A DNA stretch of 51,350 nt, filler included, from Jimgerdemannia flammicorona (Eukaryota): the NCBI GenBank assembly GCA_003990765.1. It is 2 parts of 2 records of this genome, joined end to end, with 100 filler letters (N's around TTAATTAATTAA, not from the genome) between each part and the next. Parts side by side here need not be neighbours in the genome. Positions count along the whole stretch, not along the records: positions 1 to 25,626 come from RBNJ01000810.1; 1 more part is not named here. The stretch is one strand, 5' to 3'. Positions 2,418 through 44,423 of this stretch are shown piece after piece. A program made the translations under genes and the position numbers. Within the stretch, counting starts at the first letter, position 1. Every line of letters starts with the position of its first letter. Under the pieces are notes generated by a model, which saw nothing but the letters and a program-made list of their open reading frames with translations, searched no databases and was not told where the DNA came from.

Positions 2418-3880
2418 TGTCACATAGTGATTGCTGAGTCCTTCAAATATGTCAGATTCATCTCTTAGACTAACCATAAGTTTGTTATAAGCAAGGTCTT
2501 ATTGGAGTATCTTCTCAAGATCTTATAGTCTTCAAACTTCTTATTTTTAAACTGTCTTATTATCTCTTAGATTGCTTGTATGGAATTGAGAGTAAGTGAA
2601 CTGGAACTGACTTTATTTTAAAGGAAATAAGAGAAGTATTTATATAAAATATAATTCAATAGTTGCTAAGTTATAAAGCTAAATATAAATTCTAATCACT
2701 AAATAAAATACTGGAACACAGAAAACTATAGTTGTAAGTACAAGTTCAAGTATCTGTACAAATAGTTATAAAAGTTCAAAATGTCAGTAGAATATCAGTA
2801 GTACAGGAAAAGGATATCAGAAGAATTTCTGGATTATGCAAGATCAGAATACTAGAAGAATAACAGTTATACAGAAAAAGGATGCTGGTAGAATCTGGTG
2901 TTACCAAGAACTTAAAGCAGAATGTTCAGGACTATGGAGGCTTCATCCTTGTCATTACTGAAGGAGATGAGATCTGTAAACATTTCATCTATCTCATCAC
3001 ATATGTCATGTATTTTGTATACTTCACATATATCATATAGAATGATGGTATTGCTGATGATGTCATTACATTTGGTAGTGAGAAGAATAAAGAAATCTGA
3101 GGCTCTCCAATCTATGACATTCTCTTTCACAAATATGAAGTCTTGGAGAGGTCTAACATGGATGCTGGGGCCTTGAAATATTAAGATCAATCCTTATAAG
3201 AACTGATCAGAATTGTCCTTGAGGATAGGATTCCCAAACTCTTCTACCTCATCACTATTGAGAGTGATAGTGGACTGAGCCTCTGTAGCCACCATGACTT
3301 CTAGTACATTGGTACAGCAGGCTGACAGTTTCTTGAAATCTGAGATTCTAGTACATATACTTCAAGTTGGAGATTGACCATGGTACATGTCTAAAGATCT
3401 GATAAATCTTCTTGGCTATCCTTATTTCATGTATATCTATAGGAGTGGTATCTTGTATTTCTTGGTGACTGGCCTGAGAGAATTCCTGGTAGAGGAGATT
3501 TCTTATTTTATACTCCTGCCACATCCAGAGACATTCAGTAGTAATAGTAATTCTTGTTCCTATTTTGCAGTAGTAGAGGATATAATGATAGGAGTCATCA
3601 GTACTCAGATTGATACTAGGAGTCCTTCTTGTATAGATTCTCATAGCTCTTCTGATGTCTTGGAACATTCTATCCTAGACTGAGAGGCCTTAGTGGTTCC
3701 TGAACCTTGAGGTTTGGCAAGTTGTAGGCATTTTGTTTATAGTAAGTCTTTTAGAACTATTTCTGTAAGCTTTGTTTGGATTACTGCTACTGTAATTTCT
3801 TGATTCTTCTTTTATATTCCTCAAGATATCTGTCTTGTAGTTGCAATGACTCACAGTTGGTCATCATTACTCATCTTGTA
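2418..3880 (-). mobile_element. Solo long LTR of the G2 family, missing about 90 bp at the right end
   Basis: Begins TGTCACATAGTGATTGCTGAGTCC and is colinear with 5612-7100. Copia coding sequence resumes right after it. Confidence 0.85.
2912..3731 (-). pseudogene. LTR-internal ORF, copy 1 (unknown product)
   Basis: ORFs 3348..3668 and 2912..3190 match the reconstructed ORF at 10499-11380. ATG is at ~3729-3731. Confidence 0.65.
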
Positions 3881-5235
3881 GCCCAGATGAGTCATACTAT
3901 ATAATATTAATACTTAGAATATATTGACAAATTAATTCTTAGAAGAATGATCTAAAGTAGCTTAGTAAATGGATTACTGATATATATATATCTAGAGGAT
4001 GACTTTTGCAAGATATATATGAAAAACAAAGCATCCTGATAATTATTTAAGAAATGATTAAAACTATATCTGGGATTCTTGATCTCATATATATAGATAT
4101 ATATAGGCCAATATATATATTATTATACTTTAAAAAGAAGTATTTTATCATATTTATCAATAATTATATATATATATATAAAGTATATATATATTTCTTA
4201 TTGACAAAGTGTGAAGTACTAGAGTAGTTCAAAGAGTTCAAAGTAATTACTAAAAATTAGACAGAATGTAGAGTACATACTATATAATTAGATAATAGAT
4301 ATAAATATATCAATAATATATTCAAGTAGTTTCTGAAAAAATATGATATATATTATCAAATAATAGCTTCTTATATACCTCAGCAGAATGGTATAGCCAA
4401 GTAATTTATTTATACAATCATTGAAATAGCTCAAATAATGATCAATACTACTAGATTATTATATTCTTATTGAGCCAAAGTTATTAATATAGTAGTATAT
4501 ATATATACATACATAATTAGTATATATCTTGAGTACTAAGTAAGAATTATAGTAATAATAAGTATAGAGATGATAATCTTAGCCCTGAAGAATTATAGAG
4601 CAGATCCAAGCTAAATATATCTCATCTATATATATTCAGATACAATGTATATATCCTCAATAAGAGTAATATAAATTGATATAAATTCAAGCTAAAAGCC
4701 AGCAAGTATATATTTTTAGAGTATTCTAGCAAGGCATATTAACTCTGTGATCCATATAAGTGGCATATAGTTATATTACATAACATATAGTTTAGAGAAA
4801 AAGGAATTCAAGAATTCTATATAGATGTACCAGTCAAGACATCTATATCTATATCTTATATCTCAGCTAGTATAGATATAATAACTAAAGCAACTGGTAC
4901 CAACCTCTCTAGTAGTTAATTAAAATTATTTTTAACTACTATATATCTCTAAGCTAGAGTTATCTAAACTAAGAATAATGAAGATCAAGGATGAAGATAA
5001 TGGTAAAATCTCCAGTAATGAGAGATTCTTCAAGAAGAGTAAGCAAAAGTGCTCAAATATTTACTAAGAAAGTTATTCTGATTTAGAAAATTATTGAGTT
5101 ATATCAGTAAGCTCTAGATGGTAACATAGTGCTCTAAATGAGTCAATTCAAATCAAATCTGGATTCAATTCATCACATGATAGTTTGATCTAAATCTCAA
5201 ATCTGAAACAATTTGAATCAACTTGAATTAATCTA

Positions 5236-5580
5236 AATTACTCCATCCAAATCACTCCATCTGAATCACTCTATTCAAATTACTTCATCTGAATTACTCT
5301 ATCTAAATTACTCTATCTGAATCACTTTATCTGAATTATTTCATCTGAACTACTAAATTCAAACTACTCAATCTGAACCACTCAATCTAAATTACTTAAT
5401 CCAAATTACTCAATCTGAACCACTCAATCTGAATTTCTCAATCTGAATTATTCAATTCAAATTATTTAATCTGAATCATTCAATCTGAATTATTTAATCT
5501 AAATCACTCAATCCAAATCATCTCATTCAAATCATCTAATCTGAATCTATTAATCGAAATCCTCCAATTCAAATTTTCCA
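5236..5580. repeat. hAT1 subterminal tandem array, about 24 copies of a 14-bp unit (consensus ~GAATCACTC(C/A)ATCC)
   Basis: Units such as AAATTACTCCATCC, AAATCACTCCATCT and GAATCACTCTATTC are directly visible. The same array appears inverted at ~40544-40725. Confidence 0.9.
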
Positions 5581-5611
5581 TATAACTCATATACTGGATG
5601 TATTTATATAA

Positions 5612-7191
5612 TGTCATATAGTGGTTGCTGAGTCCTTCAAATATACCAGATTCTCTTCAAGGTATATCTCTTAGACTAACTTAAGTTTGTTATAAGCAAG
5701 TTCTTATTGGAGTGCCTTCCCAAGGTCTTATAGTTTATCTTTAAACTGTCTTGTTATCTCTTAGATTGCTTACAAGGAAGTATGTATATTATACTGAAAG
5801 AAACTAAATAGACTGACTTTATTTTAGAGAAAATAAGAAGAGTATTTATACAAAATATAATTCAATAGCTGCTAAGATATAAAGCTAAATATAAATTCCA
5901 ATAACTAAAATAAAATGCCAGGATAGGAAAAACTGCTAAGTTCCAGGGTTGGCACTAATTGTTGTACAGGTTCAGAATGCTAGAATAATTCAGTATCACA
6001 TCAGAATACCAGTGCTGGCATTATTCAGTATTATATCAAAATACCAGTACTAGTATTATTCAGTATAACTAAGGGACTTAGAGCAGAATATTTAAGACCA
6101 TAGGGGCTTCATTCTCATCAGAGGTAAGAATGTCTTCAAAGGAGATGAGATCCATAAATGTCTCATCTGTCTTATCATCATCATCATGTAGGTCACATGT
6201 TTCATGTACTTCATGTATGTTATACATCTTGTATATATTATACAGGATGATGTCATCACCAATGATGTCATCATTTTTGCTGGTAGCGGAAAGGAGGTCT
6301 GGGGCTCTCTAGTTTATGAGGTTCTCTTTTACAAAATAGAGAACAAATGTGGGGTCTTGGGGAGGTCTAACCTGGATGCTTGGTCCTTAGAATACTGAGA
6401 TCAATCCTTGCAGAAATTGGTCTGGGTTGTCCTAGAGGATGGGATGCCAGAAGTCTTCTACTTCATCACTATTGAGAGTGATAGTAGACTGGGCTTCTGT
6501 AGCCACTCTGGTTTCTAGTACATTGATATGGCAGGATGACAGATCTCTGAAATCTGAGACTCTAATATACTCTAAGTTGGGGATTAATTATGGTGTATGT
6601 CTAAAGATTTGATAGATCTTCTTAGCTATCCTTACTTCATATATATATATATGTCCATAGGAGTGATATCTTGTAACTCTTGGGGGCTGACCTGTAGGAA
6701 CTCCCAGTAGTGGAGGTTTCCTATTTTGTACTCCTGCTATATTTGAAGGTATTCAGTAGTAATGGTGATCCTTGTTTCCATTTCATAATAGTAGAGAATA
6801 TAATGACAAGGGTCACCAGTACCCAGGTTGACACTAGGAGTCCTTCTTGAGTGAGTCTCCATGGCTCTTCTGATGTCTTGGAATATTCTTTCTTTGACTG
6901 AGATACCTTAGTGGTTCCTTGACCTTGAGGTTTAGCAAGCAGCAGGCATTTCATTTGTAGTAAGTCTTTAAGCTATTTTGAGATTAGTGGGTCTTATTAG
7001 TTGCTGCTACTATAGTTCCTTGATCCTTCTTTTATATTCCTCAAGATACCCACACTGTGGTCACAATGACTCACAGTTGGTCATCATTACTCATCTCATA
7101 TACCATATGATCTTCTTGTACTCTGATCTGGTGGCTTGTAAGAAAAGGCTGTTTTTTGTGCTGATGTTATCATTCTGGAGTCACCATTACA
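5612..7191 (-). repeat. G2 3' LTR (1580 bp), containing ORF copy 2 (~6077-6950) and ~33-bp repeats (~5975-6070)
   Basis: Direct repeat of 10302-11613 and 2418-3880, with TGTCA…TTACA ends. Confidence 0.9.
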
Positions 7192-7327
7192 TATTTTTCC
7201 TGAATAAGGATCTTCTTGAGCATCTTTATTTATTGATCTAGTCCTGAAAAATTTGCTGATCCCATAACCTCTGGCAAGGGGTCAAAAAGTGGTATTTATG
7301 GGCTAGTATCTTTCCTTTATATTTTGG

Positions 7328-7543
7328 TATGATGGTGAAGAGATACTCCCTTCATATAGAGCAAGGGCCTGATTCTGATCTTGACCAATCAGTTGATAGT
7401 TCAAACTCCTCTGACTTCAAAAGTCTCATGGATGAGTAGTTACTAGTGCCATATCTCTTAGAGAATGGTCCAGACAGATAGCCTGCTGGTCATAGGATAT
7501 GCTGTTATGATTTGTGGACTAGAATCTCATGGGCAGTCATCAC
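7328..7543 (-). ncRNA. Putative conserved structured RNA element in the G2 3' UTR
   Basis: Shares ordered sequence blocks and covarying stems with 12260-12486 (see findings). Confidence 0.6.
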
Positions 7544-7556
7544 ATTTTGCTTCTCT

Positions 7557-10301
7557 TATATAGGTTCATGGTACTTCTTGAGTCTGTTCCTGTGCACTGT
7601 AGTAGGCAGTATGGTCTCTGAGATTTTTCTAAGCCAGAAGATAGTTCCCTTAATATCTTGTACATAGAAGGGTTCTTCTTATTTAGGCTCCAGTTTTTAT
7701 GACCATGAGGCTTCTACCATATTTAAATACAGTAGGACCTTTTCTCCAATTCAGATGGGTTCTAGAGTCTTGTGATTCTTTTTCACATTCTTCCTTATCA
7801 GTACTTGTAACTTGATAATGTAATCTTCAGCCTTCTTTCTGATTTGGTGTAGTCTCTAGATTTCTACATTGATCTGTCTCCAAGTTAGATCTAGATTTAT
7901 AGCTGAGGTTCCATCAGAATTTTCTTCTCCAAAGAGCAGTTCTCTTGGGATAAAGTGTATGCTCTGTGACCATATGTCTCATAGGACAGAGAGGACAGTT
8001 GGGAGATAATTATCCCAATTCTCATATATCTCTGAGATCTTTGCTAAGATGTTCTTGAGGGTCTTATTAATTCTCTCTGTCTGTTCATTTCCTTGAGGGT
8101 GATATATGGTGGTCTTGATGTACTGGATCTTGTATTTCTAATATATTATCTTGTGGAATCCATTGACAAATTCTGTACTGTGGTCTGTTGTGATTTGCTT
8201 TGGTGTCTTGTAGTGGCAGATGCTTTCTCAGTACAGGAAGTTAGCTATAGAGAGGGCATTGACTTCTTGTAATACTTCTGCTTCTATCTATTTGGTAAAG
8301 AGGTCTACAATAACTATAATATAGCAGTTTCCTGATAGTATTACTGGTAGTGGCCCAATGATATTCATTGCATTGTGGTGAAAGGAGATAGACTCAATTC
8401 TTGATGACCCAGGTGCCTGGTCTTGCTGATCTTGTTTCTGTTTTTGGTACTTATCATATCCTTTGACAAATTGGCACAGATCTTCTTCTATCTTGGGCCA
8501 CCACATAGTTCTTCTTACTTTGTCATATGTGTTGATTCCTCCTAGATATTCTTACTCATATACTTCCTTCATTACTTGATACTTCTTGTATTCAGATATT
8601 ACTAGCTTTTCTTCTTTTCTAAGTATAGTGTTGTCTAGTTCAAACTGTTTCCAAGTCCAGTTGATGATGGTAATTGTCCAGGGTTCAAGGTGGTTGGGCA
8701 TCTTCCACTGCTCAAGATAGCTGATTAATTCATAGTATAACTCCTTATTCATATTGAGTAATCTTGATGGAGGTATTTTGAGGTGTCCTTGAGAGTACAT
8801 CAGCATTGGTGTTGGTTCTTTCTGAGCAGTACTTGATAGTATAGTCATACTCTTACAACCTGTAGATCTATCTGGCATATATTCCTTTAGGGTTCAGAGT
8901 GTGAAATAGCCAGACAAGAGCAGAATGGTCTGTTTGAATAGTGAAGTGTTTCCCAGCTAGGTAGTAGTGGAACTTATCTACTGCTCAAACTACTGCTAAG
9001 CATTCAAGCTTGTATGACTTATAGTTCTGTTCTGCTCTACAGGTACCTTGGCTTACATAGAAGATGACATATTTATGTCTATCTTTCTTTTGAGCTAGGA
9101 CTGCTCCAAGTCCTATAGTGCTTGCATCTGTCTGCAGAATGAATTCTAGGTTCCAATCTGGTCTTCTGAGGATAGGTGCTTGGATCAATCTGGTCTTGAG
9201 TTTATTGAAGGTTTCTTAGTATTCCTTGGTCTATTCAAATTTGGTTTCCTTCTTCAGTAGCTTATAGATAGGTGCTGTAATATTGGAGTATCCTTTGATA
9301 AATCTTCTGTAGTAGCTGGCCAGTCCAAGGAAGGCATGGACTTCTGTGGTTGTTCTGGGTCTCAGATAGGCTGCAACAGCCTCAATCTTCATAGGGTCTG
9401 TGTGGATTCTGATCTGGTTGATAAGGTGTCCTAGGTAGGTGATTTCTTGAGCCACAAACTTACATTTCTTGGGCTTGATGTAAAGGCCATGCTCCTTGAG
9501 CTTCTTGAGGGCTGCTGTATGTGATTGATATGTTCCTATGTAGTATTGCTGAAGATGATCACATCATCAACATAGACAAAGAGCCATTTTCCAATCTTGT
9601 TGCTGAAGACTCTGTTCATCATTCACTAGAAACTTGCTAGGGTATTGCACATTCTGAATGGTATTTGCAGGTAGATATAGGTAGTGTCAGATGTGATGAA
9701 GGCTTATTTCTCACTAGCATCTTAAGTGAGACCAATCTGATGGAAGCCTGAGAACAGATCCAAGGTGGTATAGTATTTGGCTTTGCTTCCAAGAGTGGTA
9801 AGGATATTTTGAATATTTGGCAAGAGCTGCTTATCCTTCTTGGTAATGGCATTGAGCTTCCTGTAGTCAATATAGAGTCTTGGTGCAAACTCTCCAGGCT
9901 TACTTGATGATTCCAGCTTCTTCTATTTCCTTGAGTTCTGCTTGCAGCCATTCTCTATAGGCAAGTAGTATGGGTCTGGCTTTCTGGTAGATGGGCTTGG
10001 TATCAACAGTGTCAACTTCATGATAGTACTTGGATTCTTGATTGTAGATATCCCTGAAGTCTGTAGCAAGTACTTCTTTGTTCTGATGTAGGATCTTGAG
10101 AAGTTGTTCTTCCAGAGGAAAGTTTTCTCCAATAGTATATGTGTGCTTGTTCTGGTCCTTGTCTTTCTTATGCTCAAGTTCAGTGATCTTGATAGTAGTA
10201 TAGGCTCCTCCTCTAGTAGATCCAAAGCCTTGTTCTCCTCTCTTGGTCTTGATGAGTTCAATGGCTTCAACAATCTTGAGTTTCTTGATTTTGTGGATCA
10301 G
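7557..10301 (-). pseudogene. pol: G2 pol remnant: dUTPase C-terminus, RT, RNase H, integrase (no chromodomain)
   Basis: RGEQGFGST dUTPase motif V (ORF 9900..10340); VYVDD at ~9563-9577; FLGLASYYRRFI; LQTDASTIGLGAVL and LECLAVV; integrase IIGPLP/VDLFTK; ends HRNRLKKYH. Confidence 0.9.
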
Positions 10302-10498
10302 CAATGGTTGATAAGATATAAAGCTAAATATAAATTCCAATAACTAAAATAAAATGCCAGAATAGGAAAAACTGCTAAGTTCTAGGGTCAGCACTAATGG
10401 TTGTACAGATTTAGGATACTGGAATAATTCAGTATTTCATCAGAATGCTGGTGCTGGAATTATTTAGTGTTACATCAAAATGCTGGTGCTGGTATTAT

Positions 10499-11380
10499 TC
10501 ATTGTAACCAAGAGACTTTGAGCAGAATGTTCAAGACCATAGGGGCTTCATTCTCATCAGAGGTCAGAATGTCTTCGAAAGAGATGAGGTCCATGAATAT
10601 CCTATCTATCTCATTGTTGTCATTACATAGATCATGTGTTTTATATACTTCATATATGTTATGCATCTCGCATATATCATGCAGGATGACATCATCACCA
10701 ATGATGTCATCATATATAGTGGCAGCGAGAAGGAGGTCTGGGGCTCTCCAGTCTATAAGGTTCTCTTCTACAAAATAGGAGACAAATGTGGGGTCTTGGG
10801 GAGGTTTAACCTGGATGCTTAGTCCTTGGAATACTGAGATCAATCCTTGTAGGAATTGGTCTGGATCATCCTGGAGGATGAGATGCCAGAAGTCTTCTAC
10901 TTCATCACTATTGAGAGTGATAGTGGACAGGGCTTCTATAGCCATCCTGATTTCTAGTACATTGATATAGTGAGATGACAGATCTCTGAAATCTGAGACT
11001 CTAACATACTCCAAGTTTGGGATTGATCATAGTACATGTCTGAAGATTTGATGGATCTTCTTAGCTGTCCTTGCTTTATATATATCCATAGGAGTGGCAT
11101 CTTATAACTCTTGGAGGCTGACCTGTGGAAACTCCTGGCAGAGGAGGTTTTCTATTTCATACTCCTGCCATATTTGGAGATATTCAGTAGCCATGGTGAT
11201 CCTTGTTTCCATTTTACAGCAGTAGAGGATATAATGATAAGGGTCACCAGTACTTAGGTTGACACTAGGAGTCCTTCTTGAGCAAGTCCCCATGGCTCTT
11301 CTGATGTCTTGGAACATCCTTTCTTCAACTGAGATGCCTTGGTAGTTCTTTGACCTTAAGGTTTAGTGAGCAGTAGGCAT
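10499..11380 (-). pseudogene. LTR-encoded ORF of ~290 codons, unknown function (best copy)
   Basis: A single frame runs from ATG 11380 through ORFs 11102..11317 and 10499..11014 (882 nt, no frameshift). The three internal stops are sense codons in at least one other LTR copy. Confidence 0.75.
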
Positions 11381-11450
11381 TTGGTTTGTAGTAAGTCTTT
11401 GAGCTATTTTGGGATTAGTGGGTATTGTTGGTTGCAGTTCCTTGATCCTT

Positions 11451-11460
11451 CTTTTATATT
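11451..11460 (-). promoter_or_regulatory. TATA box (AATATAAAAG) of the G2 LTR
   Basis: Conserved in all three LTR copies (~3810, ~7030, ~11451), about 70-80 nt upstream of the LTR ORF ATG. Confidence 0.55.
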
Positions 11461-11761
11461 CCTCAAGATACTCATCCTGTGGTCACAATGACTCACAGTT
11501 AGTCATCATTACTCATCTCATATGCTATATGATCTTCTTATGCTCCAATCTGGTGACTTGTAAGGAAAGGCTGTCTTCTGTACTAATGTCATCATTCTGA
11601 GATCACCGTTACAATAAATATATATATGTAAATACATATATATACAAATATATATATATGCAAAAATATATATATAAATACATAATACATATATCAATAG
11701 ATCAGTCTTCAACAGTTCATAGTACTGATGATACTTTAAGTCAAATATTCTTAATAGTTTC

Positions 11762-12164
11762 TGTAATGGTTCTAGTTTCTAAATGAGGAAGTGACTAATT
11801 CTGGTGGTCCTAAGTAACTCAAAGAGATACTAAGGATTCAAGTGTTCTTGAAGGATTTCTGAGAGAAAATATTCTGAGACTTTATTCATGAGAACAAAGG
11901 AGATATTTATACAAGATCTGAAAGAAGGATCTGGAAGGATCTGAGAAATCAAAGGAAAATGCCAAGAGGAAAGTTCTCAGCAAAGATGATAAATGATGAC
12001 AAATAAAGTTCTATAAGTTTCCAGGACAATCAGTGACTAACTAAATAAGTACTAGAGGATGCTTGACACCAAGAAAGGATTTCTAAGCATTCAGAAAGTA
12101 CTAGAAGGTTGTAGAATATTGAAGAAAGACAAAGAAAAGAAATAAACTATGCTAAAATGTTACA
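11762..12164 (-). repeat. G1 3' LTR
   Basis: TGTAA…TTACA ends. I count 15 differences from 17387-17789, all transitions. Confidence 0.97.
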
Positions 12165-12179
12165 TCTCTCCCTCCTTAA
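12165..12179 (-). other. G1 polypurine tract
   Basis: Minus strand reads TTAAGGAGGGAGAGA directly before the 3' LTR. Confidence 0.85.
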
Positions 12180-12259
12180 GAATCAATGTCCTCATTGAAT
12201 TCTCAAAGTTACACATAATAAACAATAAGACTAAAAGAAACTTCAAATTAAATATATCG

Positions 12260-12486
12260 ACTCATTGGCAAGAATTGGCCATTCTTATATAAGGTGAGGG
12301 CCAAAGTATCATCTTGATCGGATGAGAACTGGTTTGAACCTCATTGGTTGCAGGATTTATAGGGTTCTCCTGTATCTCTTGCTTCTGATGCTATATCTCT
12401 TAGAGAGCCCTGATGTGTAATGTACTTGATCAGTACAGTAGGTCATCTACTATCTAAGGGGAGAACCTCATGGGCAGTCAATGAGT
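12260..12486 (-). ncRNA. Putative conserved structured RNA element in the G1 3' UTR
   Basis: Closed by an 8-bp stem ACTCATTG/CAATGAGT, has internal hairpins, and shares blocks with 7328-7543. Confidence 0.6.
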
Positions 12487-15400
12487 TCCTTTTTGCTTGA
12501 ACTCTTGGATGAGGTCTTGAGAGTTCTTGAGATTGACAGCAGGTTCCCAGGTGGTGTCATATTCAGGGTAGCCCATCCACTTGACTAGGTATTCTGTATA
12601 ATGGTATCAGACTCACTTGTCTAAGATTTTCTTGACTTCATACTTGATGTGGTCTTCAACTATGACTGATGCTGATGGTATTGGAATTTGGCCAGGGTAT
12701 GGGGGTGACTGGTTCCAGGCCTTGAGTTGTGACTGGGTATATACACATGGTTGTTGGCAAGTTGAGATAGTAAGATCAGGTAGAGACTTGCTTGGTAATC
12801 TCGAAGGATCTAAGGTACTTGGGCTGGAATTTGGCTGACTGGTGGTTGACTTGAGATTGAGCCTTGATGTTGTCAGCTTTGAGTAGAACCATATTACCAA
12901 TGTTGTATATGACATCTTGCCACTTCTTATCTGTATACTTAGCTTGATGTTGCTGAGCCTTTTGCAGGTTCATAGTGACAATCTTAAGAAGGGAATCCAT
13001 TTTGTCGATAAGGTTCTGGGCTGTAGGGACTTGAGTATGACTAGATTGCTGGAATTGAACTAGACTTGCAGGGGTCTCAGGGTTTTGACTGTGAAGTAGC
13101 TAAAATGAGGAAAGACCAGTTAATAATTGGTTGGTATTATTGTAGGTGAACTCGACATAGGTCAGATAGTGGTCCCAATCATCTTGCTCATAAGACACAT
13201 AGTTTCTGAGCATTTGTTCAAGTGTTCTATTCATTCACTCTGTCTGTCCATCAGTTTGAGGATGAAAGGCAGTGGACATAGCAATTTGGGTTCCAAGGGT
13301 CTTGAAGAGTGCTTGCCAGAAGTGACTTGTGAACTTGGGGTCATGGTTGCTGATAATTACTTGGGGAAGTCTATAATGGTGGAAGATAGTCTTGAAGAAG
13401 ATTCTTGCAATTTCTGGGGCAGTGGTATTGGTTGTGGTTGACTCAGCGATTGTAATCTTGGTGAGATGGTCCACAAACACAACAATGGCATCATAGCCTG
13501 TTTTGGTTCATGGGAGTTGCACAATGAAGTCCATTGTGACTTGTTCAAACTTCTTGGTCAGAATTGACAAGGGTTGTAGAAGACTGGCAGGTGCTTAATT
13601 GCTTGACTTGTTTCTTTGGTAAAGATCATAACTTTGGACATACTCCTTGATTTCCTTGAGCATGTTTGGCCAGTAGTAGTCTCATTGGATATTCTTGATG
13701 GTCTTCTCAGTTCCAAGGTAGCCAGCTAGTGGGGAGTCATGGTGTTCATGAAGAATCTTGTACTGTAGTTCAGGGTTGGCAGGAATATATACTTTGTCTT
13801 AATAGTACACAAGGTTGTCCTTGATGGTATACTTTTCCTTGAATTCCTTAGTATTCCTTTGTAGAACCAGAGAGTCTTGTTTGTACACCTTCTTGATCTG
13901 ATTGAGGAATTGAGGACCACAGTGACTTGTAAAATCATGGTAAGGTCAGGTCTCTTTGAAAATATATCTAGTACAACTAGAGTTTTGCCAGGCTTGTATA
14001 TGATGTTTGTGGTAAAAGTCTGAAGTAGTTGGCTCCACTTGGCTTGTTGGCAAGAAAGGGTTGGTTGAGTGTTGATATACTGAAGGGACCTGTGATCGGT
14101 GATCACATTGAACTTAACTCCTTCTAGATAGTGTTACCAGGTCTTAAGGGCATGCATGATTGCCAGGAGTTCCTTTTCATGAGTAGCCAGCTTTTGTTCT
14201 GCTGGGGACAATTTTCTTGACTCAAAGGCAATAGATCAGTGTCCTTGACCATCATCTTGAGAAATGACTACACTAATGGCAAAGTTATATGTATCTGTAG
14301 TGACTGTGAACTTCAAGTTTGGGTCCATGTTTCTAAGAACAGGTGCATGGGTCAAGCAGTTCTTGAGTTCTTGAAAGGCTTGTTGACAGAAGGCATCCCA
14401 GATGTAGGGGACATAGAGGTCAGAGTTGGGTTCCTTTCGCAGGAGATTTGTCAAAGATTCTGCAATGCCAGAGAAGTTCTTGACAAATTGATGGTAGTAT
14501 CCAGCCAGACCAAGGAAGGACCTGAGTTCAGTGAGGTTTGCTGGAACAGGCCACTGTTCAATGGCTTGTATTTTTCTTGGGTCTACTTGAATTCCTTTGG
14601 CTGATACAATATGTCCAAGGTATTCGACTTGATCCTTGTAAAATTCACATTTCTTGAGCTTTGCATAGAGCTTGTTCTCGTGGAGAATCTTGAGGACTTG
14701 TTTGATGTACTTGAGGTGTTCTTCTTCAGTACTACTGAAGATCAGGATGTCATCAATGTATACAAGTACAAAGATATAGAGCTGGTCCTTGAAGACAGTT
14801 TGTATGAGGTCTTGAAAGGTTGCTGGCACATTGGTGAGACCAAAGGCCATGACTAGGAATTTGTAGAGTCCAAAGGGTGTCATGAAGGCAGTCTTGGATA
14901 TGTCTTCTGGCTTGATTCGAATTTGGTGATACCCAGAGGTGAGATCAATCTTGGTGAAGTACTTGGCATTCTTGAGAGCATCAAAGATTTGATCTATGAG
15001 CAGTAGTGGATAATGGTTCTTGACTGTAATCTTGTTGAGTGCATAGTAGTCTATGCACATTCACAGAGTATCATCCTTTTTTTTGACAAATAGGACTGGG
15101 GAGCCAAAGGGTGACTTGCTTGGTTGAATGGCTCCTCACTCAATGAGTTCATTGAGTTCCTTCTTGACTGCTTCAATTTCGAGTGGAGACATGCAGTTCA
15201 TTTTCTTCTTAGGTATAGCTGCATCAGGTATTAACTTGATTTCGTAGTCATGATCTCTTGAAGGTGGTAGACCAGGTAGTTTGTCCAGGAAGACATCCTT
15301 GTACTTGTTCAGCAGTAACTTGATGCTTTCACTAATCGATAGCTTCTTGTCTTCTTTCTTTGGTTAGATCAGTGCCACAAAGGCACAGGTAGCTTTCTTG

Positions 15401-15830
15401 AGGGCCTTCTTGAACTGAATTGCTGAAAGGGTAGCAATTGGGGTTCTTGTCTGAGTCTTGTCTGGCTTGATGGTAATGTTGGCTCTATCTTGAATCAAGG
15501 TGACTTCATTCTTGGTCCAATCAATCTGAGGGTTGTGCCATGTAAGCCAGGGTTTGCCTAGGATCAGATCATGGTCTTCTAGTGGTGCTACCTCGAAATC
15601 TAAATATTCCCAGTATATCTGGATCTTGAGGGGAAGTTTAGTGGCAATTGAGTCAATTGGTAAGGTGGTGCCATCTGCAGTGACAACTTCACCATTCTTG
15701 CTAGCTGGTTTGGTGAGAATCTTGAGCTTGTTGATGAGGTTCTTGTTGATGAAGTTCCCAACAGCTCCACTGTTTATGAGAACATCTAGCTCTTGTCCCT
15801 TGACTAGACCTTTGAAGATGAGCATTGAAT
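12478..15830 (-). pseudogene. pol: G1 pol: aspartic protease, RT, RNase H, integrase, chromodomain
   Basis: LINSGA (D>N by transition) and ILGKPWL; RT with YIDD in 14236..15060; ITDHRSL; HPQTDGQTE; chromodomain YEVKKILDK…YLVKWMGYPEYDTTWEP at ~12545-12645; stop TGA at ~12478. Confidence 0.95.
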
Positions 15831-16280
15831 TGGCTTGGTTCTCGGCTATACTTGCAACTTTATCAGTACTGCCAAAGCCTTTCTGATCTCACTTGATTGA
15901 AGACAGCTTGGTGACTTCTTTGACAACTGGTAGGGTGGCTTGCTCCAGAATGAGCTGTGCAATTCTATCTCCTTCATTGATGGTATATGGCTGGTTCTTG
16001 TGGTTGACTAGCAGGACTTGCATTTCACCTCGGAAGTTAGGGTCAATAACTCCAGCACCAACATCTAATGAGTGCTTAAAACTGAGGCCAGATCTTGGTA
16101 AAATTCTTGCATAATGTTCCTTGGGAATTTCGACTGAAAGGCCAGTTGGAATGAGCTTTCTCTCATGTGCTGGAATAGTGACTTGTTGTACTGCTTGAAG
16201 GTCCAAACCAATGGCTCCTTCTGACTATGTTTGAGGGATCTGGGCCTTGGGGTTGACTCATATGAAATTGAGTACAACTT
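15825..16280 (-). pseudogene. dut: Trimeric dUTPase domain between gag and protease of G1
   Basis: Motifs AIGLDL, IPTGL, PRSGL, GVIDPNFRGE, GDRIAQL and GFGST (past one TGA stop) are all present in order. Confidence 0.95.
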
Positions 16281-17318
16281 CTTGTTCAACTGGTTGACCT
16301 TAGTGTCTTTGGATAGGACCAGGATCCTCTTTGGTTTGGCAGTTTTCTTGGGACATTTGGTTGCAATGTGACCAGGCTGATGGCAAAAGAAGCAGGCTCC
16401 AGCCTTCTTGAGATGCTCCTTTTCCTTGGGTGTAAGCTTGCCTTTCTTGCTCTTGTCGATAGTGTCTAGGTCTACGGGGACAGGTCCACCAGTTCTGACT
16501 TTGGATTTCTCCCTTTTGTGGTTGTTGTTGTTGTTGTTGAAAGGTGGTCTCTTTTGTTCAAAGCGGTGACCATAGGTGATGACATCAAACCTATCAGCAA
16601 TTTTCATTGCTGTATCTAGGTCCTTGGGTTCTTCTAGTTCAACATGAACTCGGGTTTGACCTTTCAGGCCTCGGATGTACTTGTCAACCTTCTTGTCTTC
16701 AGTGATATGTGATAATTCTAGCAGGATTGACAGGAATTATGTATTATATGCTTGCATAGGCTTGAGTTGTTTGACATTTGCCAGACGGTCTCATGCGGCC
16801 TTGGTGCTATTAACTGGTTTGAATTGGCCTTAAATAGCATCAGAGAATTCACCCCAGGTCTTGATTCGGCCAGAGAATCTGATATTCTGGATATGATTTC
16901 ACCACCAGATTGCAGCATTCCCTCGGAGGAGTGTGGTGGCAAATTGGACTAGTGTTGTTTCTTTCAAATTAGTCAGTTCTCCATATTGCTCCAATTGGAA
17001 AAGCCAGGAGTCGGTAGACAGTCCTCCTCTTTGACCATCAAAGGTGTTGGGCTTCTGAGGCTTGATAGTAACTGCTGTTGGATATATTGATATCAGTAGA
17101 GGTGTGGAGGTATGAGCAGGGGCCTTACTTTTCTTTCTTTCTATATATTCTTGAAGTTGAGCAATCTGAGCTAATGCAGTCTGCAAAAGACTCTCAATGG
17201 CCCCATTCGACTGAGTAGGGTTTTGCTGTTCCTCTTCTTCTTGCTGATTGTACTGATTGTATGAGGCATTGTCTGGACCATAGGTACTGTATGAAGGGTT
17301 CCACCCATTGTCCTCCAT
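16065..17318 (-). pseudogene. gag: G1 gag with zinc knuckle
   Basis: ATG at 17318; KPNTFDG, WLFQLEQY and LRGNAAIWW capsid motifs; knuckle CFFCHQPGHIATKC. Confidence 0.9.
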
Positions 17319-17372
17319 AGTGTTGTGACTGATATCTTGGAAGGTGTCTTGATAAGGCTAGGTATAACTTAA

Positions 17373-17384
17373 CCACTACTACCA
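17373..17384 (-). other. G1 primer-binding site (TGGTAGTAGTGG; likely de-RIPed TGGTAGCAG…, initiator tRNA-Met-like)
   Basis: Starts with TGG, 2 nt inside the 5' LTR. G0 has the cognate TGATAGCAGTAG. The tRNA identity is an inference. Confidence 0.65.
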
Positions 17385-17386
17385 AG

Positions 17387-17789
17387 TGTAATGGTTCTGG
17401 TTTCTAAATGAGGAAGTGACTAATTCTGGTAATCCTAAGTAACTTGAAGAGATACTAAAGATTCAAGTGTTCTCAAAGGATTTCTGAGAGAAAATATTCT
17501 GAGACTTTATTCATGAGAACAAAGGAGATATTTATACAAGATCTGAAAGAAGGATCTGGAAGGATCTGAGAAATCAAAGGAAAATGCCAAGAGGAAAGTT
17601 CTTGACAAAGATGACAAATGATGACAAATAAAGTTCTACAAGTTTCCAGAACAATCAGTGACTAACTAAATAAGTACTAGAGGATGCTTGACACCAAGAA
17701 AGGATTTCTAAGCATTCAGAAAGTACTGGAAGGTTGTAGAATATTGAAGAAAGACAAAGAAAAGAAATAAACTATGCTAAAATGTTACA
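17387..17789 (-). repeat. G1 5' LTR
   Basis: Direct repeat of 11762-12164. Confidence 0.97.
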
Positions 17790-18528
17790 GTTTCACACTT
17801 TCTATACAATCCTCACTCTGAAGTCTGGCAATATTGTGTTAAGACTAGAGATGATATTATTTATAATTATTACAGATAAAAAATTTAAAAAAGAAGATGT
17901 ATTTATAATACAACTGATGCTTTTGTTTGATACATACATAATGTTATTTCTATCAACTTCTGTATACTATATAGCCAGAAGTTCAAAATGCTTAGTGGGT
18001 CAACTTTAAATATATATCAATATATAAAAGATAAATACTCTGACAAAATCAAAAAGAATACAGAAGCAAATAAAATTGATATCCAAGCTGTGGTAGATAT
18101 ATTTATCTAATTGCCTGACCAATTCTATATTAATAACTCTATTTAATCAAAAATATTTAACCATATTTTTTTGGTAGAATTTTGAAATTGACTTATTTGC
18201 TAGATTATATATACAGATTAACCATTTACAATCATTATGAGTAATTGGTTGCATAGCATCTTTAGCCTTCTCAAGCATAATTTATATCTGCCAAATACTA
18301 ATACTATTTATAAAGTTATTCTAGAGGCCTATAGAAAGGAGCATAACAATCTTTATCAAATACTTTAGATAAAATAAATAAATAAGAGTAATATTATAAC
18401 TATTATAAGCTTAATTATATATATATATAAAGAGCTCATCAATCATCTCTCTCTGGTACCACTCAGGTTACACAACCTTTGGAAGGTACTTACAATATCA
18501 TTTTTGAAGAAAAGAGACTAGCAACATA

Positions 18529-20548
18529 GTGACCAATAGGCAATCTGAGGTACATACTGGGCAGGGTGACCTAAGCACTTTCAAATGGCAGCAGGCAGGA
18601 AGGGGTCTGGGCCTAGGAGGGGACATAAGAGGGCTGCTGGCAGGAGGGCATGGAAGGGGGAGAGGTACTGGTGGAGGTCAAGGGTCTGGGAGGGCGAGCT
18701 TTGCAAAGGCAGTGAGGGGAAGACAGCAGGCATCAGAGCTGGAGGGCTGGCTGAGAAAGGGCAAGGAGAACGAGCAGATGGCAGGGCATGGGAGAGTAGT
18801 CCTTAGAAGGGGGGGCAGTAGAGTTGGGGGAGTAGTGGCTGTGGGGAGTATGACTACTGATGGTGATGGGACTGCCAATCTGGAAAAAAATTCAGATGTG
18901 ACAGCTGATGGTGAGGCTGAGTGGCTGAGGCTTAGAAGACAAGAGGATTTGGTAGATGGTGTGATGGGCCTAGCAGTGGCCCTGTTACTCAAAAAGTCGA
19001 TCTTGGCATTTGTGGTTATACTGTGCTTCTGGGGCTTAGTGGTGATGGTGAAAATGGTACTGAGGCTTATTGCTAAGCAGATGACAGAAGCCATATCAGT
19101 GAAGTTTTTGAAGGGACTGGAGGGTGTGGAGGTGGGTTTTGAGGAGGCTGAGCCACTGGAGGAGGTGCTAAAAGTTGGGTTGGTAGTTGAGGAGGTATGT
19201 GTTCTGATGGCATGGTGCTTGAAATAGGATCCAAGGGTGGTCTAACTGCTAGTGAAAGGAGTGCCCACAGTGATGGCAGGAGAGATGAGAAAGAGAGTTG
19301 AAGATGTCATGGCAGAATATGAAGAGGTGGTGGATATAGGTTTCAGGGTCTGGGAAGGGACCTCACTCAAAACTAGTGATATGGATGTGAGAATTCAGCT
19401 GGCGGAGAAAGAAGCTACCAGGAAGGTGAGGGACTGGCCTTTGGTGATGGTCTGGGGAGTGATTTTGTGCAAGATGATAAGGGTGAAGAGAAGTGAGGAG
19501 GAGGAAGAGGATTTATTAGAAGTACTTGAAGAATTGAGTGGTGTTGTGGAGCAGCAAGCTAAGGCTTGGAAGGCCTTTGTGGAGTCAATACACTTGGAGG
19601 TGGTAGATGGAAAGTGGATTTGAGTGGACAGGGTGCAGTGGGAAAGGATGAAGGGGTGTAAGAGACAGAGAGATCTGTTGGCTAAACTGAGAGGCAGTCC
19701 ACTGGAGGATGAGGGCAAGATGATGGGCATGGAGGGGGCCAAAGTGAGTGCCTGAGCTGGCAAGAAGAGAGGAAATGATGAGAAGGAGGCAGGGAAGGAG
19801 AAGGAGGTGAGGGTTGGTGACCTGTATGCTGATAGTACCTTTGAGGTTTGGGAGGAGGCCTGGGAGAACTCTCCCATCCCTTCTCCTCTTATCAGGCATG
19901 GCCCAGCTTCCCGAAACAAGGTAGTGGAAGATATGGCAATACAGGGGGCACAAAGGGTGAAATTTGGTGTTCCAGAGGTACCGACTAGGAAACATGTGGT
20001 GGTGGCTAGAGAGGAGGAACTGGTGGATGTCCCTTAGGTGTGAGATAAGGCTGCGAGTGCTGGAGCTGACACCACAATGCTGGACAGAGGGAGGCCAGCG
20101 ACCCCTGGAGGGAAGGAGGTGGGGAATCTACTTTGGATATGCAGAATGATGAATAATCTGGCAGCAGAAGAGTTGGGGGAGGTGGACTTGCAAGTGATGG
20201 GGGATGAGCACTGGGTAAGGATATTGCAGGGGGATAGAGTGATGATGGCACTGAAGGTAGAAATTCTTACAGTATATCTGGAGGAGGAAGGGTATGAGGT
20301 GGACAAGGAGTGGGAGGCAGAGATGGCAGTTATTGCTGGGGAGAGGGCTGAATACTGCTGGAATAAGCATCATGGATTACAGCTTTGGCAGGAGGCATGC
20401 ATTGAGTACCAGGAGGAATTTGAGGAGAAGGCAGATGGGGAGATGAATGAGATGTTGGCTGGATTGGAGACTTAAAGGGCAGAAGAGGAGGAGGTGATGG
20501 CAGAGCATAATCTGGACATGGCACAGGAAGCAATAAATATAGAATAGT
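18529..20548 (+). pseudogene. LINE-A1 ORF1 (Gly-rich N-terminus, SFAKAV motif, acidic C-terminus)
   Basis: ORFs 18529..19227, 19252..19623, 19807..20037 and 20077..20475 share one frame and are homologous to 48271-50260 on the minus strand. Confidence 0.75.
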
Positions 20549-20580
20549 AGAGGTTGACTAATTACAAACCATACTTCATT

Positions 20581-23500
20581 ATAAACAGTACAACCAATAT
20601 TTTTTCTTTGAACATGAATGGGTTATGGAGTGCTGTTAGACATAGGAACATTTTTACTTAGCTGAAGGGATTGGAGGTCGATCTCTTCCTCATGCAGAAT
20701 GTCAGGTGTGAGGATGATTCTGATAGGATAGAATGGACAAAGGAATGGGGAGGCATGGTGATTTGGAAAGGCAAGGTTGGGATTCTGGTTTGGAAGGGCA
20801 GAGGGGAGATACAAGATGTAAGGAACTGGGGGGAGAGGCTGGTCTGGAGTGAGTGGATTTGTGCAGACTGGGAGCCAATTACAGTTGGCTCCTGTTACTG
20901 CTCTGCCATATGGGGTGAGCACATCAATTGGGTGAAGGGTCTTCAGGAGAGTGGAATCCTTATAGAGGCTGGGGTAGATGTGCTTGGGGGAGATTTCAAT
21001 ATGGTTCAGGATATACTGATAGATAGAACCAATAGAGGATGGGGTGCTGAGAGCAGGAGTGGGGGACTGGCAATGTGGGAGGAAGTAGAAAGACTTAGTG
21101 CATTGGTAGATACTGGTAGGGGGTACTGGGGGGATAGAAGGATTTATATGCATTGGGCTGGGGGCCTGGAGACTAGGATCGATTGGATTCTGACAGCTGG
21201 CTACTGGGGAAGAGATGTCTGGAAGTTGCTGGAGGTGGAGTGGTGCCTATGGTTGGATCACTGGGGCCTTTTGGGACAGGGGTGCTTTGGGGGAAGTGGG
21301 GTGGGCCTGGACATTGGTGCCTAAATTCCTCTTTGTTAGATGACAAGTCTCAGTAGAGTGAGTGGGCTAAAATCATTCAGCTGAGGGTAGAGAACTGGTG
21401 ACAGGAGGGTGCTTCAATTGAGGTTTGGTGGATGAGGATGAAAGAGTTGGCCAGGATTTACTAGAGCGAGGCTGGTAAGGAGGTGGGGAAGCAGAGGAGG
21501 TATAGAGTGCAGTGGGCTTCTACTAGATTGACTAGACTTCTGGAGGAGTGGGCAAGACTGGCAATGTTGGAAGGAGAAGATGATTGGAGAGTCTTGAGGG
21601 CAAAGATGGAGGTTGGGGAACTACAACAGGTGCTGAAGAAAGAGGAAGAGGTAAGGGTGCAAAGCTTGATGGCATAGCTTCGTTAGCAGGTGCTGGAGGA
21701 AGGGAAGAGGCCTTCCAAGTTCCTCATGAAGACCCTTAGGGCAAGAAGGGTACAGCAATGGTGGGAAGGGATACTTAACTCGGATGGGGTGCTAGTATAT
21801 GGGGTGCAGGACATTCTTGGATTATTGAAGGAGCAATGGAGTGGATTGCAGAGTGAAGAGGAGGGTGGGGCAGATGCTGATGCCATTGACCAAATATTGG
21901 AGGATTGGCACCTGCCACAGGTAGAGGGACTAGGCAACCTGGTGATACCTGTAATGGAGGATGAGATCCACCAGATTCTTGCCATGACAACCCCAGGTAT
22001 GGTGCCTGGGGAGGATGGTCTGCCCTGGGACTTCTGGAAGCGAATGGTTAGAGTCCTGGGGGTGATAGGAGAGATGATGGCATTGTGTAACTCTATACTA
22101 CAGACAGGGAGATGGGTGGGGGAGCAGGATCTTGGGCTGGTGATGCTGCTTTATAAGAACAAAGGAAGGCATGAGGATTGGAAGAACTGGTGGCTGATAA
22201 TGCTACTGGACATGGATAGAAAGTTGGTAACTGAGGTGGTGGTTGCAAGGCTGCAGAAGGTGGCCCAACAAGTAGTGGGTATTGAGTAGAGAGGATTTGT
22301 GGGCAGTCAGCTCATAAGAGATGGCACAGCCTGGGTACATAGAGTTATTGAAGGGACTAGAGCCTGTGAACTGAATGGATATCTAGTCTTCTTGGATCAG
22401 GAGAAGGCTTATGACCAGGTACAACAAGTCTGGCTGGTGAAGGTACTGGATAGAACAGGGGTGCTATGCCAATTTCAGATAGCAATGGTCAGCCTACTGG
22501 AAAGGAGTAGGGCTGTGCTCATGTATAATGGACATAGAGGGGTAGTGTTCCCCCTGGGTAGGGGGGTGCCCCAGGGGGTCCCACTGTCCCCCATTTTGTA
22601 TGCCCTTTCCCTGGAACCTCTGATGGATAAAATTAGGTAGAGGATAGCAGGGCTCTCTATCTATAACATTGGGTGGAAAGTTGGGGCCTTCATAGATGAT
22701 ATAGTGTTTGGTTTGGGTTTGATTGTCGATGTAGAAGAGCTCAAGAGGATAGTGGAGTGGTATGAGGAGAACTCTGGGGCTAAGTTGAATTGGCACAAGT
22801 GTGAAACAATGGTGCTGGACAACAGACTGGTGGGAGGAGAAGTTATAGGAACAATTGTCCCCACCAGTGAGGCAGTGTGGTACTTGGGCATCTATTTGTC
22901 AGTCTATGGATCGGTTCTGCCCAGACTTTGGTGGGAGCAGAGAATTGACATTTGGGAGGAGGACCTGTGGGGTTGGGGGAGAAGGCACTTTTCTCTGGTG
23001 GGGCGGGTCTTGATTTTGAATGTATATTGGTTGCCGAAGCTGTAATATTTGGCTTACCATCTGGATTTCCCAGCCTGGGTGGTGAAGAGATTGTTGAAGG
23101 TAGCAAAAGGATAGATTTGGGTGAGCAGAAGAAGTCAGATTGGTTGGGAGACCTTATCCCTACTGGTGGCAAGAGGTGGCCTTGGGCTGGTGGATTTTCC
23201 CAAACGACTTCACTGCTTAAGGGCATGGTGGCTAAAGAGGGCAGTGAAATTGCAAGGAGGAAGATGGGTTCCTCTGCTACAGAAGATCTAGGAGAGGTAG
23301 ACATTGCTGAGAGGCTCAACTGGTGATCTCTTCTCACTGGTTGGACTTTGGAATACTGGACTATTGCAATATAGAGGATTCTGGTGGGGGATAGTGGAGG
23401 GGGCACACCACATTGGTATTTGCTGGCAGGGGAATGAGGGGGAGGTGGCTTGGGATCTGGCAATGTGGAGATGGAACAGTTTACTGCTGGGTGGTATTCC

Positions 23501-24240
23501 TTTAATTGAGTTCGATATTGGTGATGGAATGGAATGTCAGAGGGGACCAGGCCAGGATCTGTGGCCTAGCAGTTGGCAAGGAGTTGGAATTGGAGAAGAG
23601 TGGAACTGGTAGGGTGTTTAGACCTAGAGTACTGCAGTGTGTAAGTGGATGCTGCCAAAGTACTGGGTGGTATAGTGGCACATGCTATAGAGGAATGTAA
23701 TGCTCAACTTCTGCTCAGGGCACCTTATTGTAGGGGGTTGCTTCAACTGTGAGGAGTACCATAATGTAGAGCAGGAAGAGGGCTTCATACAGACACCAGA
23801 ACATTGGCTAGAAGAGTGTGAGGTGTTGGGAGACTTTTGGCAGGCTATCAGAGAACACTTAGAGGTGAGGGGTAGGAGAGGTAAGGTACAGGGGAGGTGG
23901 GAGGACTTGAGGGATCAATTGGTAAGGGAGGTAGGAAAGGAATAGCTTACCTTAGGCTGGGTAGTGGCTATTTGGGTGGGGCTAGCCAGTTACTAGCTAT
24001 TTGTTTTTGAGGATGGGAGGAGACAGGGTTTGGAGTGCTGGGTGTTGCGGTGGCAGAGTCTTATGAAAGATGCCTTGACAGACTGGTGGCTTGATTGGGG
24101 GCTACAGGGTGGTCAGTGGTGCTACTTGGTGGAGAAAATCTATAAACAGAGTGGTGGGAGAGTTGGTATTGTTGGGGAGAGAGTGATCTTTATTTATGGG
24201 AAGATGGGAGGGGCTCTCCTATGGGAATTGGGTAGTAGGT
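20581..24240 (+). pseudogene. LINE-A1 ORF2: APE endonuclease, RT, C-terminal Cys/His motif
   Basis: SLNMNGL, GGDFN, RIDWI, LDH; PGEDGLP, LDQEKAYD, GVPQGVPLSP, F(A>I)DD, YLGI; CFNC…QTPEHW. Confidence 0.92.
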
Positions 24241-24293
24241 GATGATAGTATATATTATTCATAGACTGGTAATAAAGGTAGAGTCCAAGTGAC

Positions 24294-24345
<52 letters not shown>

Positions 24346-37347: not shown

Positions 37348-37414
<67 letters not shown>

Positions 37415-40300: not shown

Positions 40301-40543
40301 ATTTTTTATCTACAATAATTACAAATAATATCATCTCCTATCTTAGCACAATATTGCTAGATTTCAGAGTGAGGATTGTATAGAAGATATGGAACTATTA
40401 GGGATATTTGACTTAAAGCATTATCAGTACTGTAAACTGTTGAAGACTGATCTATTGATATGTATGTTTGTGTGTTTGTATGTATATATATATATTTGCA
40501 TATATATATATTGTTTATGTAGATGTATTCAGTATATAAGTCA

Positions 40544-40857
40544 TGTAGAGGATTCAGATTGGAGGATTCAGTTGAAGAATTCAGATGAGGATTCAGATTG
40601 AAGAATTCAAATTAGAGAATTTGAATTGGAGAATTTAGATTGAGTAATTTGGATTGAGTAATTTGGATTGAGTAATTTGGATTGAGTAGTTCAGATGGGG
40701 TAATTTAGATGGAGTGATTTAGATTAATCTGAGCTGATTCAGATGACTTTGGATTTGAGATTTGGATCAAACCATCATGTGATGAATCAAATCCAGATTT
40801 GATTCATGTGATGAATCAAATCCAGATTTGATTCAAATTGACTCATTCAGAGCACTA
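40544..40857. repeat. hAT2 right subterminal 14-bp array (about 13 units) and TIR
   Basis: Reverse complement of the 5127-5580 region, with fewer units. Confidence 0.88.
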
Positions 40858-41331: not shown

Positions 41332-41406
<75 letters not shown>

Positions 41407-44400: not shown

Positions 44401-44423
44401 GGTGAGTAGAGTGGTGATTTTGA

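Follow-up and report, generated by a model that had tools for sequence, protein, structure and literature searches.

A folded RNA module downstream of pol in two Ty3/Gypsy retrotransposon families of Jimgerdemannia flammicorona, probably a new control element of retrotransposon RNA

Introduction

Cis-acting elements that take unspliced retroelement RNA past the RNA surveillance of the host and through export are known from a few mammalian retroviruses and retrotransposons. The RTE of the mouse IAP is about 200 nt long and contains several stem-loops, and the CTE of Mason-Pfizer monkey virus consists of a single long stem interrupted by two identical internal loops. The mouse IAP is organized as pol/RTE/ppt near the 3′ LTR, as outlined in part of an earlier report (PMC2674570), and a section of a 2025 review states that the IAP RTE acts through the host factor RBM15/NXF1 (PMC12786077). 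According to excerpts of two accounts, the MTE of MusD has a complex intramolecular structure and needs long-range contacts, a pseudoknot and a kissing loop for its function (PMC3362945, PMC12786077). For Ty3, passages of two papers ascribe the conservation of 3′-UTR segments to tRNAiMet, which dictates it (PMC4974528, PMC11381356). RNA export of plant LTR retrotransposons has not been directly studied, according to a passage of the 2025 review (PMC12786077), and a keyword search of open-access text retrieved no account of a structured RNA conserved downstream of pol in Ty3/Gypsy elements.

Here, we analysed a 51,350-nt stretch of J. flammicorona DNA (the window) in which two Ty3/Gypsy elements of different families, G1 and G2, share an RNA module of about 225 nt between pol and the 3′ LTR. 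The succession of last ORF, element, and PPT and 3′ LTR that characterizes the RTE/MTE/CTE class is found in both. Like the IAP RTE, the module thus sits between pol and PPT near the 3′ LTR, as a putative cis-acting RNA of an intron-less LTR retroelement; the RTE carrier, however, is mammalian and retrovirus-derived, whereas the module carriers are Ty3/Gypsy elements of a probably fungal host, and the analogy is one of position, size and complexity. The module can be compared with the complex fold of the MusD MTE through its closing stem, its several hairpins and a candidate pairing between two loops, but the latter is one possible covarying pair in an ambiguous alignment, and the comparison is one by analogy. 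The 3′ half of the bipartite primer-binding site of Ty3 also belongs to a Ty3/Gypsy element and also comprises conserved 3′-UTR segments; it consists of two short segments, whereas the module is a closed 225-nt domain. The twofold symmetry of the Mason-Pfizer CTE is not evident in the module. Finally, the module resembles group I introns and GIR1 in its length of about 220 nt and in its conserved unpaired stretches between variable helices, but it has no match to their covariance models, no flanking exons and no splice context.

Results

The window is eukaryotic and repeat-rich, and it contains two decayed Ty3/Gypsy elements, both on the minus strand, as are all element, module and helix coordinates given for them below. 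G1 (11762 to 17789) has 403-bp LTRs (TGTAAC...TTACA) that are 95% alike, a 5-bp TSD (GAAAC) and many stops. Its Pfam matches (Ty3_capsid, zf-CCHC, dUTPase, RVP_2, RVT_1, RT_RNaseH, rve and Chromo) give the order gag-dUTPase-PR-RT-RH-IN-chromodomain. A primer-binding site is legible, and the polypurine tract AAGGAGGGAGAGA (12165 to 12177) abuts the 3′ LTR, which begins at 12164, on its 5′ side. The dUTPase domain of G1 (15889 to 16224, Pfam E = 2e-31) is located between gag and protease in an element that also has a C-terminal chromodomain; dUTPases in chromoviruses of several fungi, and the combination of dUTPase and chromodomain, are described in part of an earlier study (PMC2864245), which is suggestive of a fungal host.

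G2 (about 5863 to 11613) has LTRs of about 1.3 kb, the 3′ copy of which begins with TGTAAT at 7191, and RT-RH-IN internally (RVT_1, RT_RNaseH_2 and Integrase_H2C2). Its internal part contains no chromodomain, and the interval from the 5′ LTR to RT holds no gag, protease or primer-binding site. An open frame into RT begins at the inner edge of the 5′ LTR (10251 to 10343). That this frame runs straight from the LTR edge and that a primer-binding site is missing imply that this copy has lost gag and protease; G2 is thus an internally deleted derivative, and the missing genes look like a defect of this single copy and not like a trait of its family.

The LTRs, the PPT and the RT-RNase H-integrase order with Ty3-type domains place both carriers in Ty3/Gypsy, and both copies in the window are dead relics. 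The preliminary description had called the two families dissimilar, which is borne out by LTR length (403 bp versus about 1.3 kb), by RT pieces that are 38 to 44% identical and by the chromodomain, present in G1 only. It had also ascribed to them a different domain order; no such difference was found, the G2 copy merely being without gag and protease. RT homologues were at most 63% identical, except for one 93% match on a 1.4-kb JGI contig.

G1 is inserted 148 bp upstream of the G2 5′ LTR. A third copy of the 1.3-kb LTR is present at 2606 to 3890, and its outer flank is the same as that of the G2 3′ LTR, which points to a duplicated LTR-plus-flank unit. Between this third copy and the G2 3′ LTR, an AT-rich stretch contains a 14-bp tandem array of about 30 units (5174 to 5593). 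Elsewhere in the window, long stretches of 40 to 50% GC are extremely strand-asymmetric, with a GC skew of ±0.4 to 0.5 (18000 to 24500, 27000 to 32000, 37000 to 39500, 40000 to 44500 and 45000 to 50000). They are mutual copies in direct and inverted orientation with 70 to 80% identity, exemplified by the pairs 28739 to 31969 and 41489 to 44372, and 22558 to 24197 and 37616 to 39255. The long ORFs of this repeat family had no Pfam match.

At the DNA level, the resemblance between G1 and G2 is confined to three places, RT (59% over 817 nt), the integrase core (66% over 105 nt) and the module (62% over 170 nt), so that the module is as conserved as the best-conserved coding parts. From closing stem to closing stem, the module spans 12260 to 12486 in G1 and 7328 to 7544 in G2. 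We built a covariance model from both copies and ran it over the whole window with filters off. It retrieved the two copies alone, with 265 bits for G1 and 248 bits for G2; the next match scored 11.9 bits.

Two blocks of 18 to 19 nt in the module are almost invariant. Block 1 (sense UGACUGCCCAUGAGGUUCU in G1; consensus UGACUGCCCAUGAGRUUCU) lies at 12462 to 12480 in G1 and 7521 to 7539 in G2, and block 2 (consensus UCUCUAAGAGAUAURGCA), which holds the invariant hairpin UCUC-UAA-GAGA (12406 to 12396 in G1), lies at 12389 to 12406 and 7447 to 7464. At up to 3 mismatches, the block 1 pattern TGACTGCCCATGAGRTTCT (sense) has just these two matches in the 51 kb, for a chance expectation of 0.05, and two matches were reached in none of 100 shuffles. 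The block 2 pattern TCTCTAAGAGATATRGCA similarly has just its two matches, a number reached in 3 of 100 shuffles. Blocks 1 and 2 are separated by 60 nt in G1 and 61 nt in G2, and the smaller blocks GGTCAT, GTTYRAAC, ATCTTGAYC and AGGGCC occur in the same order in both elements. The blocks and positions first reported for the two elements were thus reproduced, with matches confined to G1 and G2, ordered and similarly spaced. The two elements also carry the same derived letters at 12471 and 12398 in G1 and at 7530 and 7456 in G2.

Over 228 aligned columns, the two modules are 48.7% identical and yet contain two exact runs of 14 nt. When the pattern of identities was shuffled 10,000 times, the longest run was reached 30 times and the second run never. 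Two such runs at 48.7% identity indicate that the similarity is block-wise rather than that of a uniformly diverged patch, and the clustering speaks against a recombinational patch with neutral divergence.

The module had been described as following right after the pol stop, which proved correct. In G1, block 1 opens with the stop of the pol frame (chromodomain), TGA at 12480 to 12478, which shares bases with the closing stem; the module (12486 to 12260) is followed by the PPT (12177 to 12165) and the LTR (from 12164). In G2, the stop of the integrase frame, TAA at 7558 to 7556, lies 16 nt before block 1, and the module (7544 to 7328) is followed by the LTR from 7191. The arrangement in G1 raises the possibility that the module is tied to translation termination at the pol stop, with a role in readthrough, in ribosome recycling or in shielding the 3′ UTR from NMD: the UGA, followed by C, is the first triplet of block 1 inside the closing stem, so that a terminating ribosome must open the domain. 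We consider a role of this sort hardly probable, given that the G2 stop is located 16 nt upstream with block 1 in another frame and that a ribosome reading through in G1 would meet another stop after just 7 further codons.

The module is not a small ORF. Each of the six frames contains 2 to 10 stops in both copies, the longest open stretch is 45 codons, the gaps in the alignment measure 2, 3 and 9 nt, and the frame of block 1 relative to pol differs between G1 and G2. No shared open frame and no codon-type conservation were found, and we conclude that the module is non-coding.

Closing stem, terminal hairpin and inner stem, which the preliminary description had all proposed, were present in the predicted folds of both copies. 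The closing stem P1 pairs 12479 to 12486 (5′ strand) with 12260 to 12267 (3′ strand) in G1, with a pair probability of 0.98, and 7538 to 7544 with 7328 to 7334 in G2, with a probability of 0.95; its strands read ACUCAUUG/CAAUGAGU in G1 and UGUGAUG/CAUCAUA in G2. The terminal hairpin P6 occupies 12269 to 12287 in G1 (strands 12287 to 12281 and 12275 to 12269) and 7336 to 7354 in G2 (UGAAGGGA/UCUCUUCA, 7354 to 7347 and 7343 to 7336; probability 0.86). The P5 hairpin (12309 to 12325 in G1, probability 0.95; 7375 to 7392 in G2, probability 0.78) displays the conserved loop (C)GAUCAA in G1, which corresponds to the block ATCTTGAYC, and GGUCAA in G2. Between blocks 1 and 2, a variable domain (12408 to 12460 in G1, 7468 to 7519 in G2) is delimited by an outer stem, CCCU/AGGG in G1 and GUCCA/UGGAC in G2, and encloses two hairpins in G1.

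To score covariation, we searched the two-sequence alignment for all helices of 4 bp or more whose columns pair in G1 and in G2 alike. P1 and P6 each have 7 bp common to both copies; in P1, 5 of these differ in both bases, and in P6, 4 differ in both bases and 2 in a single base. None of 300 column shuffles produced a top helix with 5 covarying pairs or a runner-up with 4, which puts P1 and P6 each beyond the null (0/300), on the sense strand only. When the opposite strand is read, no helix exceeds 3 covarying pairs, because several pairs are G.U on the sense strand. P1 and P6 also recur in independent folds of the single sequences, with pair probabilities of 0.95 to 0.98 for P1.

Four further helices are formed at corresponding places in both copies, namely the stem of the variable domain, the mini-hairpin of block 2, a stem around the stretch from GUUYRAAC to GGCCCU and the hairpin with the GRUCAA loop. 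They have 0 to 2 covarying pairs each, and 2 is common in the shuffles; these four are therefore consistent with the alignment and not individually significant. This includes the inner stem, CCCU/AGGG versus GUCCA/UGGAC, whose 2 covarying pairs are below significance when taken alone. In all, two helices are statistically supported, with four more that are consistent; in the RTE/MTE/CTE class, function depends on a defined and conserved secondary or tertiary structure. RNAalifold returned 41 pairs, 18 of them with changes on both sides, a count that is inflated by construction with two sequences.

Folding energies were less distinctive. On the sense strand, they are unremarkable relative to shuffles (z = −1.8 for G1 and −0.2 for G2); on the plus strand, G1 folds better than on the sense strand (z = −3.25) and G2 worse than its shuffles (z = +1.25). 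The variable domain of G1 folds as [[][]], as do 1.9% of its shuffles. A three-way junction shared by both variable domains was considered and rejected, as the isolated G2 domain does not adopt the [[][]] fold; the inner fold of this domain is thus not robustly common to both copies.

Other copies of the G1 family were sought in public runs. The stretch, or parts of it, was detected in small shares in soil, rhizosphere and root metagenome runs and in the runs of two organisms. From four runs, 20, 2, 170 and 7 contigs were aligned to the stretch at a likeness of at least 80%. Among the best-supported 40 of 118 variant places, 25 lie inside the module, and 9 of these 25 are at predicted pairs. 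Two of them, 12273 and 12283, are partners in P6 that form a G-C pair in most other copies and an A-U pair in the window. Their unequal frequencies in run X6 imply copies with a G.U intermediate on the sense strand; one low-depth contig in run X1 points to the reverse intermediate, which does not pair. Among the variants listed, six single transitions fall at predicted pairs, and all of them keep the sense-strand pairing: five pairs become or remain G.U, and one changes from U.G to C-G. On the plus strand, five of these six transitions give a mismatch. One transversion, at 12406, disrupts the mini-hairpin of block 2 at its first pair. The pattern of variants is supporting evidence and not proof, as it concerns the best-supported subset and as related copies are not independent.

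Over 12260 to 12600, the differences between the G1 copy of the window and most copies in runs X1, X3, X6 and X17 are mainly transitions. Many of these transitions in G1 are G-to-A on the sense strand, one of them at a CpG inside block 1 (12471).

These data bear on the possibility that the module has no RNA function, being inherited or recombined sequence or a DNA-level site such as a protein-binding site or an antisense promoter, with covariation by luck. In its favour, the alignment comprises just two sequences, the helices were selected post hoc, the folding z-scores are weak and G1 has a better fold on its plus strand than on its sense strand. However, chance would have to account for the clustered identities, with a second 14-nt run absent from all 10,000 shuffles, and for two helices that exceed 300 of 300 shuffles on the sense strand only. 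Moreover, the variants keep sense pairs through G.U, five of six transitions would leave a mismatch in DNA or on the other strand, and G2 on its plus strand folds less well than its shuffles. A lack of RNA function therefore appears rather improbable, and the earlier claim of a conserved folded RNA on the sense strand of the retrotransposons is upheld by P1 and P6, beyond 300 shuffles, and by the within-family variants.

The conserved blocks had also been suggested to form three long-range pairings, of which two are broken in one copy each: G1 puts a C.A mismatch into UGCC x RGCA, and G2 an A.C mismatch into GAGG x CCUC. The third, UGACC x GGUCA, holds in G2 only, where it is perfect; in G1 it contains one mismatch. 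At a nearly homologous place, G1 offers UGAUC x GAUCA as an alternative, which would link a hairpin loop in the variable domain to the conserved loop GRUCAA. UGAUC x GAUCA and UGACC x GGUCA would be one covarying tertiary pair, in an alignment that is ambiguous, being off by one column.

The long-range pairings had been compared with a group I core. No family of Rfam 15, which comprises models for group I introns, ribozymes, snRNAs, snoRNAs, tRNAs and viral cis elements, matched the whole window at gathering thresholds. Scans of 6-kb and about 250-nt segments at E values up to 10 gave nothing in the G1 copy and only snoRNA-type or sRNA chance matches of 10.6 to 17.9 bits in the G2 copy, and even at E = 10 no match was common to both copies at equivalent positions. 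The group I reading is unsupported because no Rfam 15 family matches at equivalent places. As for the pairings of a group I core (P3-P7 and P4-P6), two of the three proposed fail in one copy and the third is unambiguous only in G2. The same observations weigh on the broader proposal of a catalytic RNA, a self-cleaving or self-processing ribozyme possibly with a permuted group I-like core. A ribozyme would be in keeping with invariant unpaired blocks that a compact scaffold of several helices holds in place, closed by a stem and possibly joined by long-range contacts, and ribozymes are known from other classes of retroelement. The contigs aligned from the runs had no ends in common, but contigs do not reveal ends. 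Cleavage between pol and PPT would presumably part the template from the 3′ R region, which is hard to reconcile with LTR replication, and we deem a ribozyme highly improbable. Equally remote is a new catalytic or autonomous class of RNA at the pol-PPT junction of several deep Ty3/Gypsy lineages, in which the blocks would be the active site and the variable helices would hold it.

In G1, self-complementary GAUC is present in two hairpin loops, at 12431 to 12427 and 12319 to 12315, and it is not kept in G2. The GAUC loops could make a loop-loop contact within one RNA or between two RNAs. They are among the features that would suit a packaging and/or dimerisation signal bound by Gag/nucleocapsid; such a signal, if shared, would also allow particles of G1-like elements to package the gag-less G2 type. 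Packaging signals are typically structured, conserved cis elements, as stated in part of PMC4974528, and neither gag nor protease separates the G2 5′ LTR from RT. Against this, the G2 deletion looks like the defect of a single copy rather than a family trait, the GAUC loop is replaced in G2 by GGUCAA and a different second loop, and the divergence of the module matches that of RT and so gives no sign of recent capture. In addition, Ty1, Ty3 and retroviruses have their known packaging determinants chiefly at the 5′ end, according to passages of PMC4974528 and PMC11381356. We hold a packaging role to be somewhat improbable.

Since the module lies just upstream of the PPT, it might act in reverse transcription, with the invariant blocks annealing to the primer tRNA or to another host RNA and the fold presenting them. 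An invariant host RNA partner would explain blocks that are nearly identical at about 40% RT identity, and the 3′ UTR of Ty3 carries two tRNA-complementary segments, according to sections of PMC4974528 and PMC11381356. A closed multi-helix domain of 225 nt far exceeds what Ty3 uses, however, and no tRNA gene was found within the window. There is likewise no sign of 5′-3′ cyclisation, as G1 and G2 share no complement of at least 8 nt to the blocks at equivalent places; block complements are only scattered 8-mers, including an 8-mer complementary to block 2 in the G1 LTR. A role in reverse transcription thus seems quite unlikely.

Collections of viral, metagenome and prokaryote sequences contained no relatives of the module outside the source genome and the runs with the G1 family. 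Viral contigs of IMG/VR had no match to the block 1 pattern, and 11 loci found there with the block 2 pattern were dismissed as chance matches, all scoring at most 12 bits with the covariance model. Among JGI metagenome contigs, the two-block pattern had no match. Block 1 alone had 7 loci, six in GC-rich contigs (53 to 68%) and one at 45% GC; these were rejected, as the further blocks were not in order and the model gave at most 16 bits. In prokaryote genomes, the two-block pattern hit 7 loci, which amount to a single chance match repeated because they all belong to one homologous coding region of Lachnospiraceae MAGs.

Discussion

We propose that the module is probably a new control element of retrotransposon RNA. 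It would act in cis as a multi-helix domain, about 225 nt long, within the 3′ UTR of the full-length sense RNA, starting at the pol stop codon and closed by the long-range stem P1. Within it, at least four more local helices would let their sequence drift while keeping their pairing, and the 18- to 19-nt blocks and one hairpin loop would stay almost invariant. That the same blocks are kept despite about 40% RT identity makes it most likely that they contact one slowly evolving partner common to both families. This partner would probably be a host factor: a host protein or RNA would fit better than the fast-evolving Gag or RT of each element. A primer tRNA, as a shared RNA partner, would explain the invariant blocks equally well.

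Its closest working analogues are the IAP RTE and the MusD MTE, transport elements that act independently of splicing and recruit the host mRNA export pathway to unspliced RNA. Elements of the RTE/MTE/CTE class do so by way of NXF1/Mex67, and the domain may do likewise. Control of RNA stability, or sorting between translation and packaging, would belong to the same class as export, and the data do not separate them. A post-transcriptional element of this type, which recruits a host factor to unspliced RNA for its export, stability or sorting, is a distinct possibility and the explanation that we tentatively adopt.

Its occurrence in two families at about 40% RT identity makes the module a concrete and small candidate, of about 225 nt, for an element that takes Ty3/Gypsy RNA through surveillance and export. 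It would represent a new RNA family for annotation, and it may serve as a marker with which to trace how lineages of retrotransposons exchange modules. Should the partner of the blocks be a host factor or a host RNA, the module would point to that dependency of the retrotransposons on their host.
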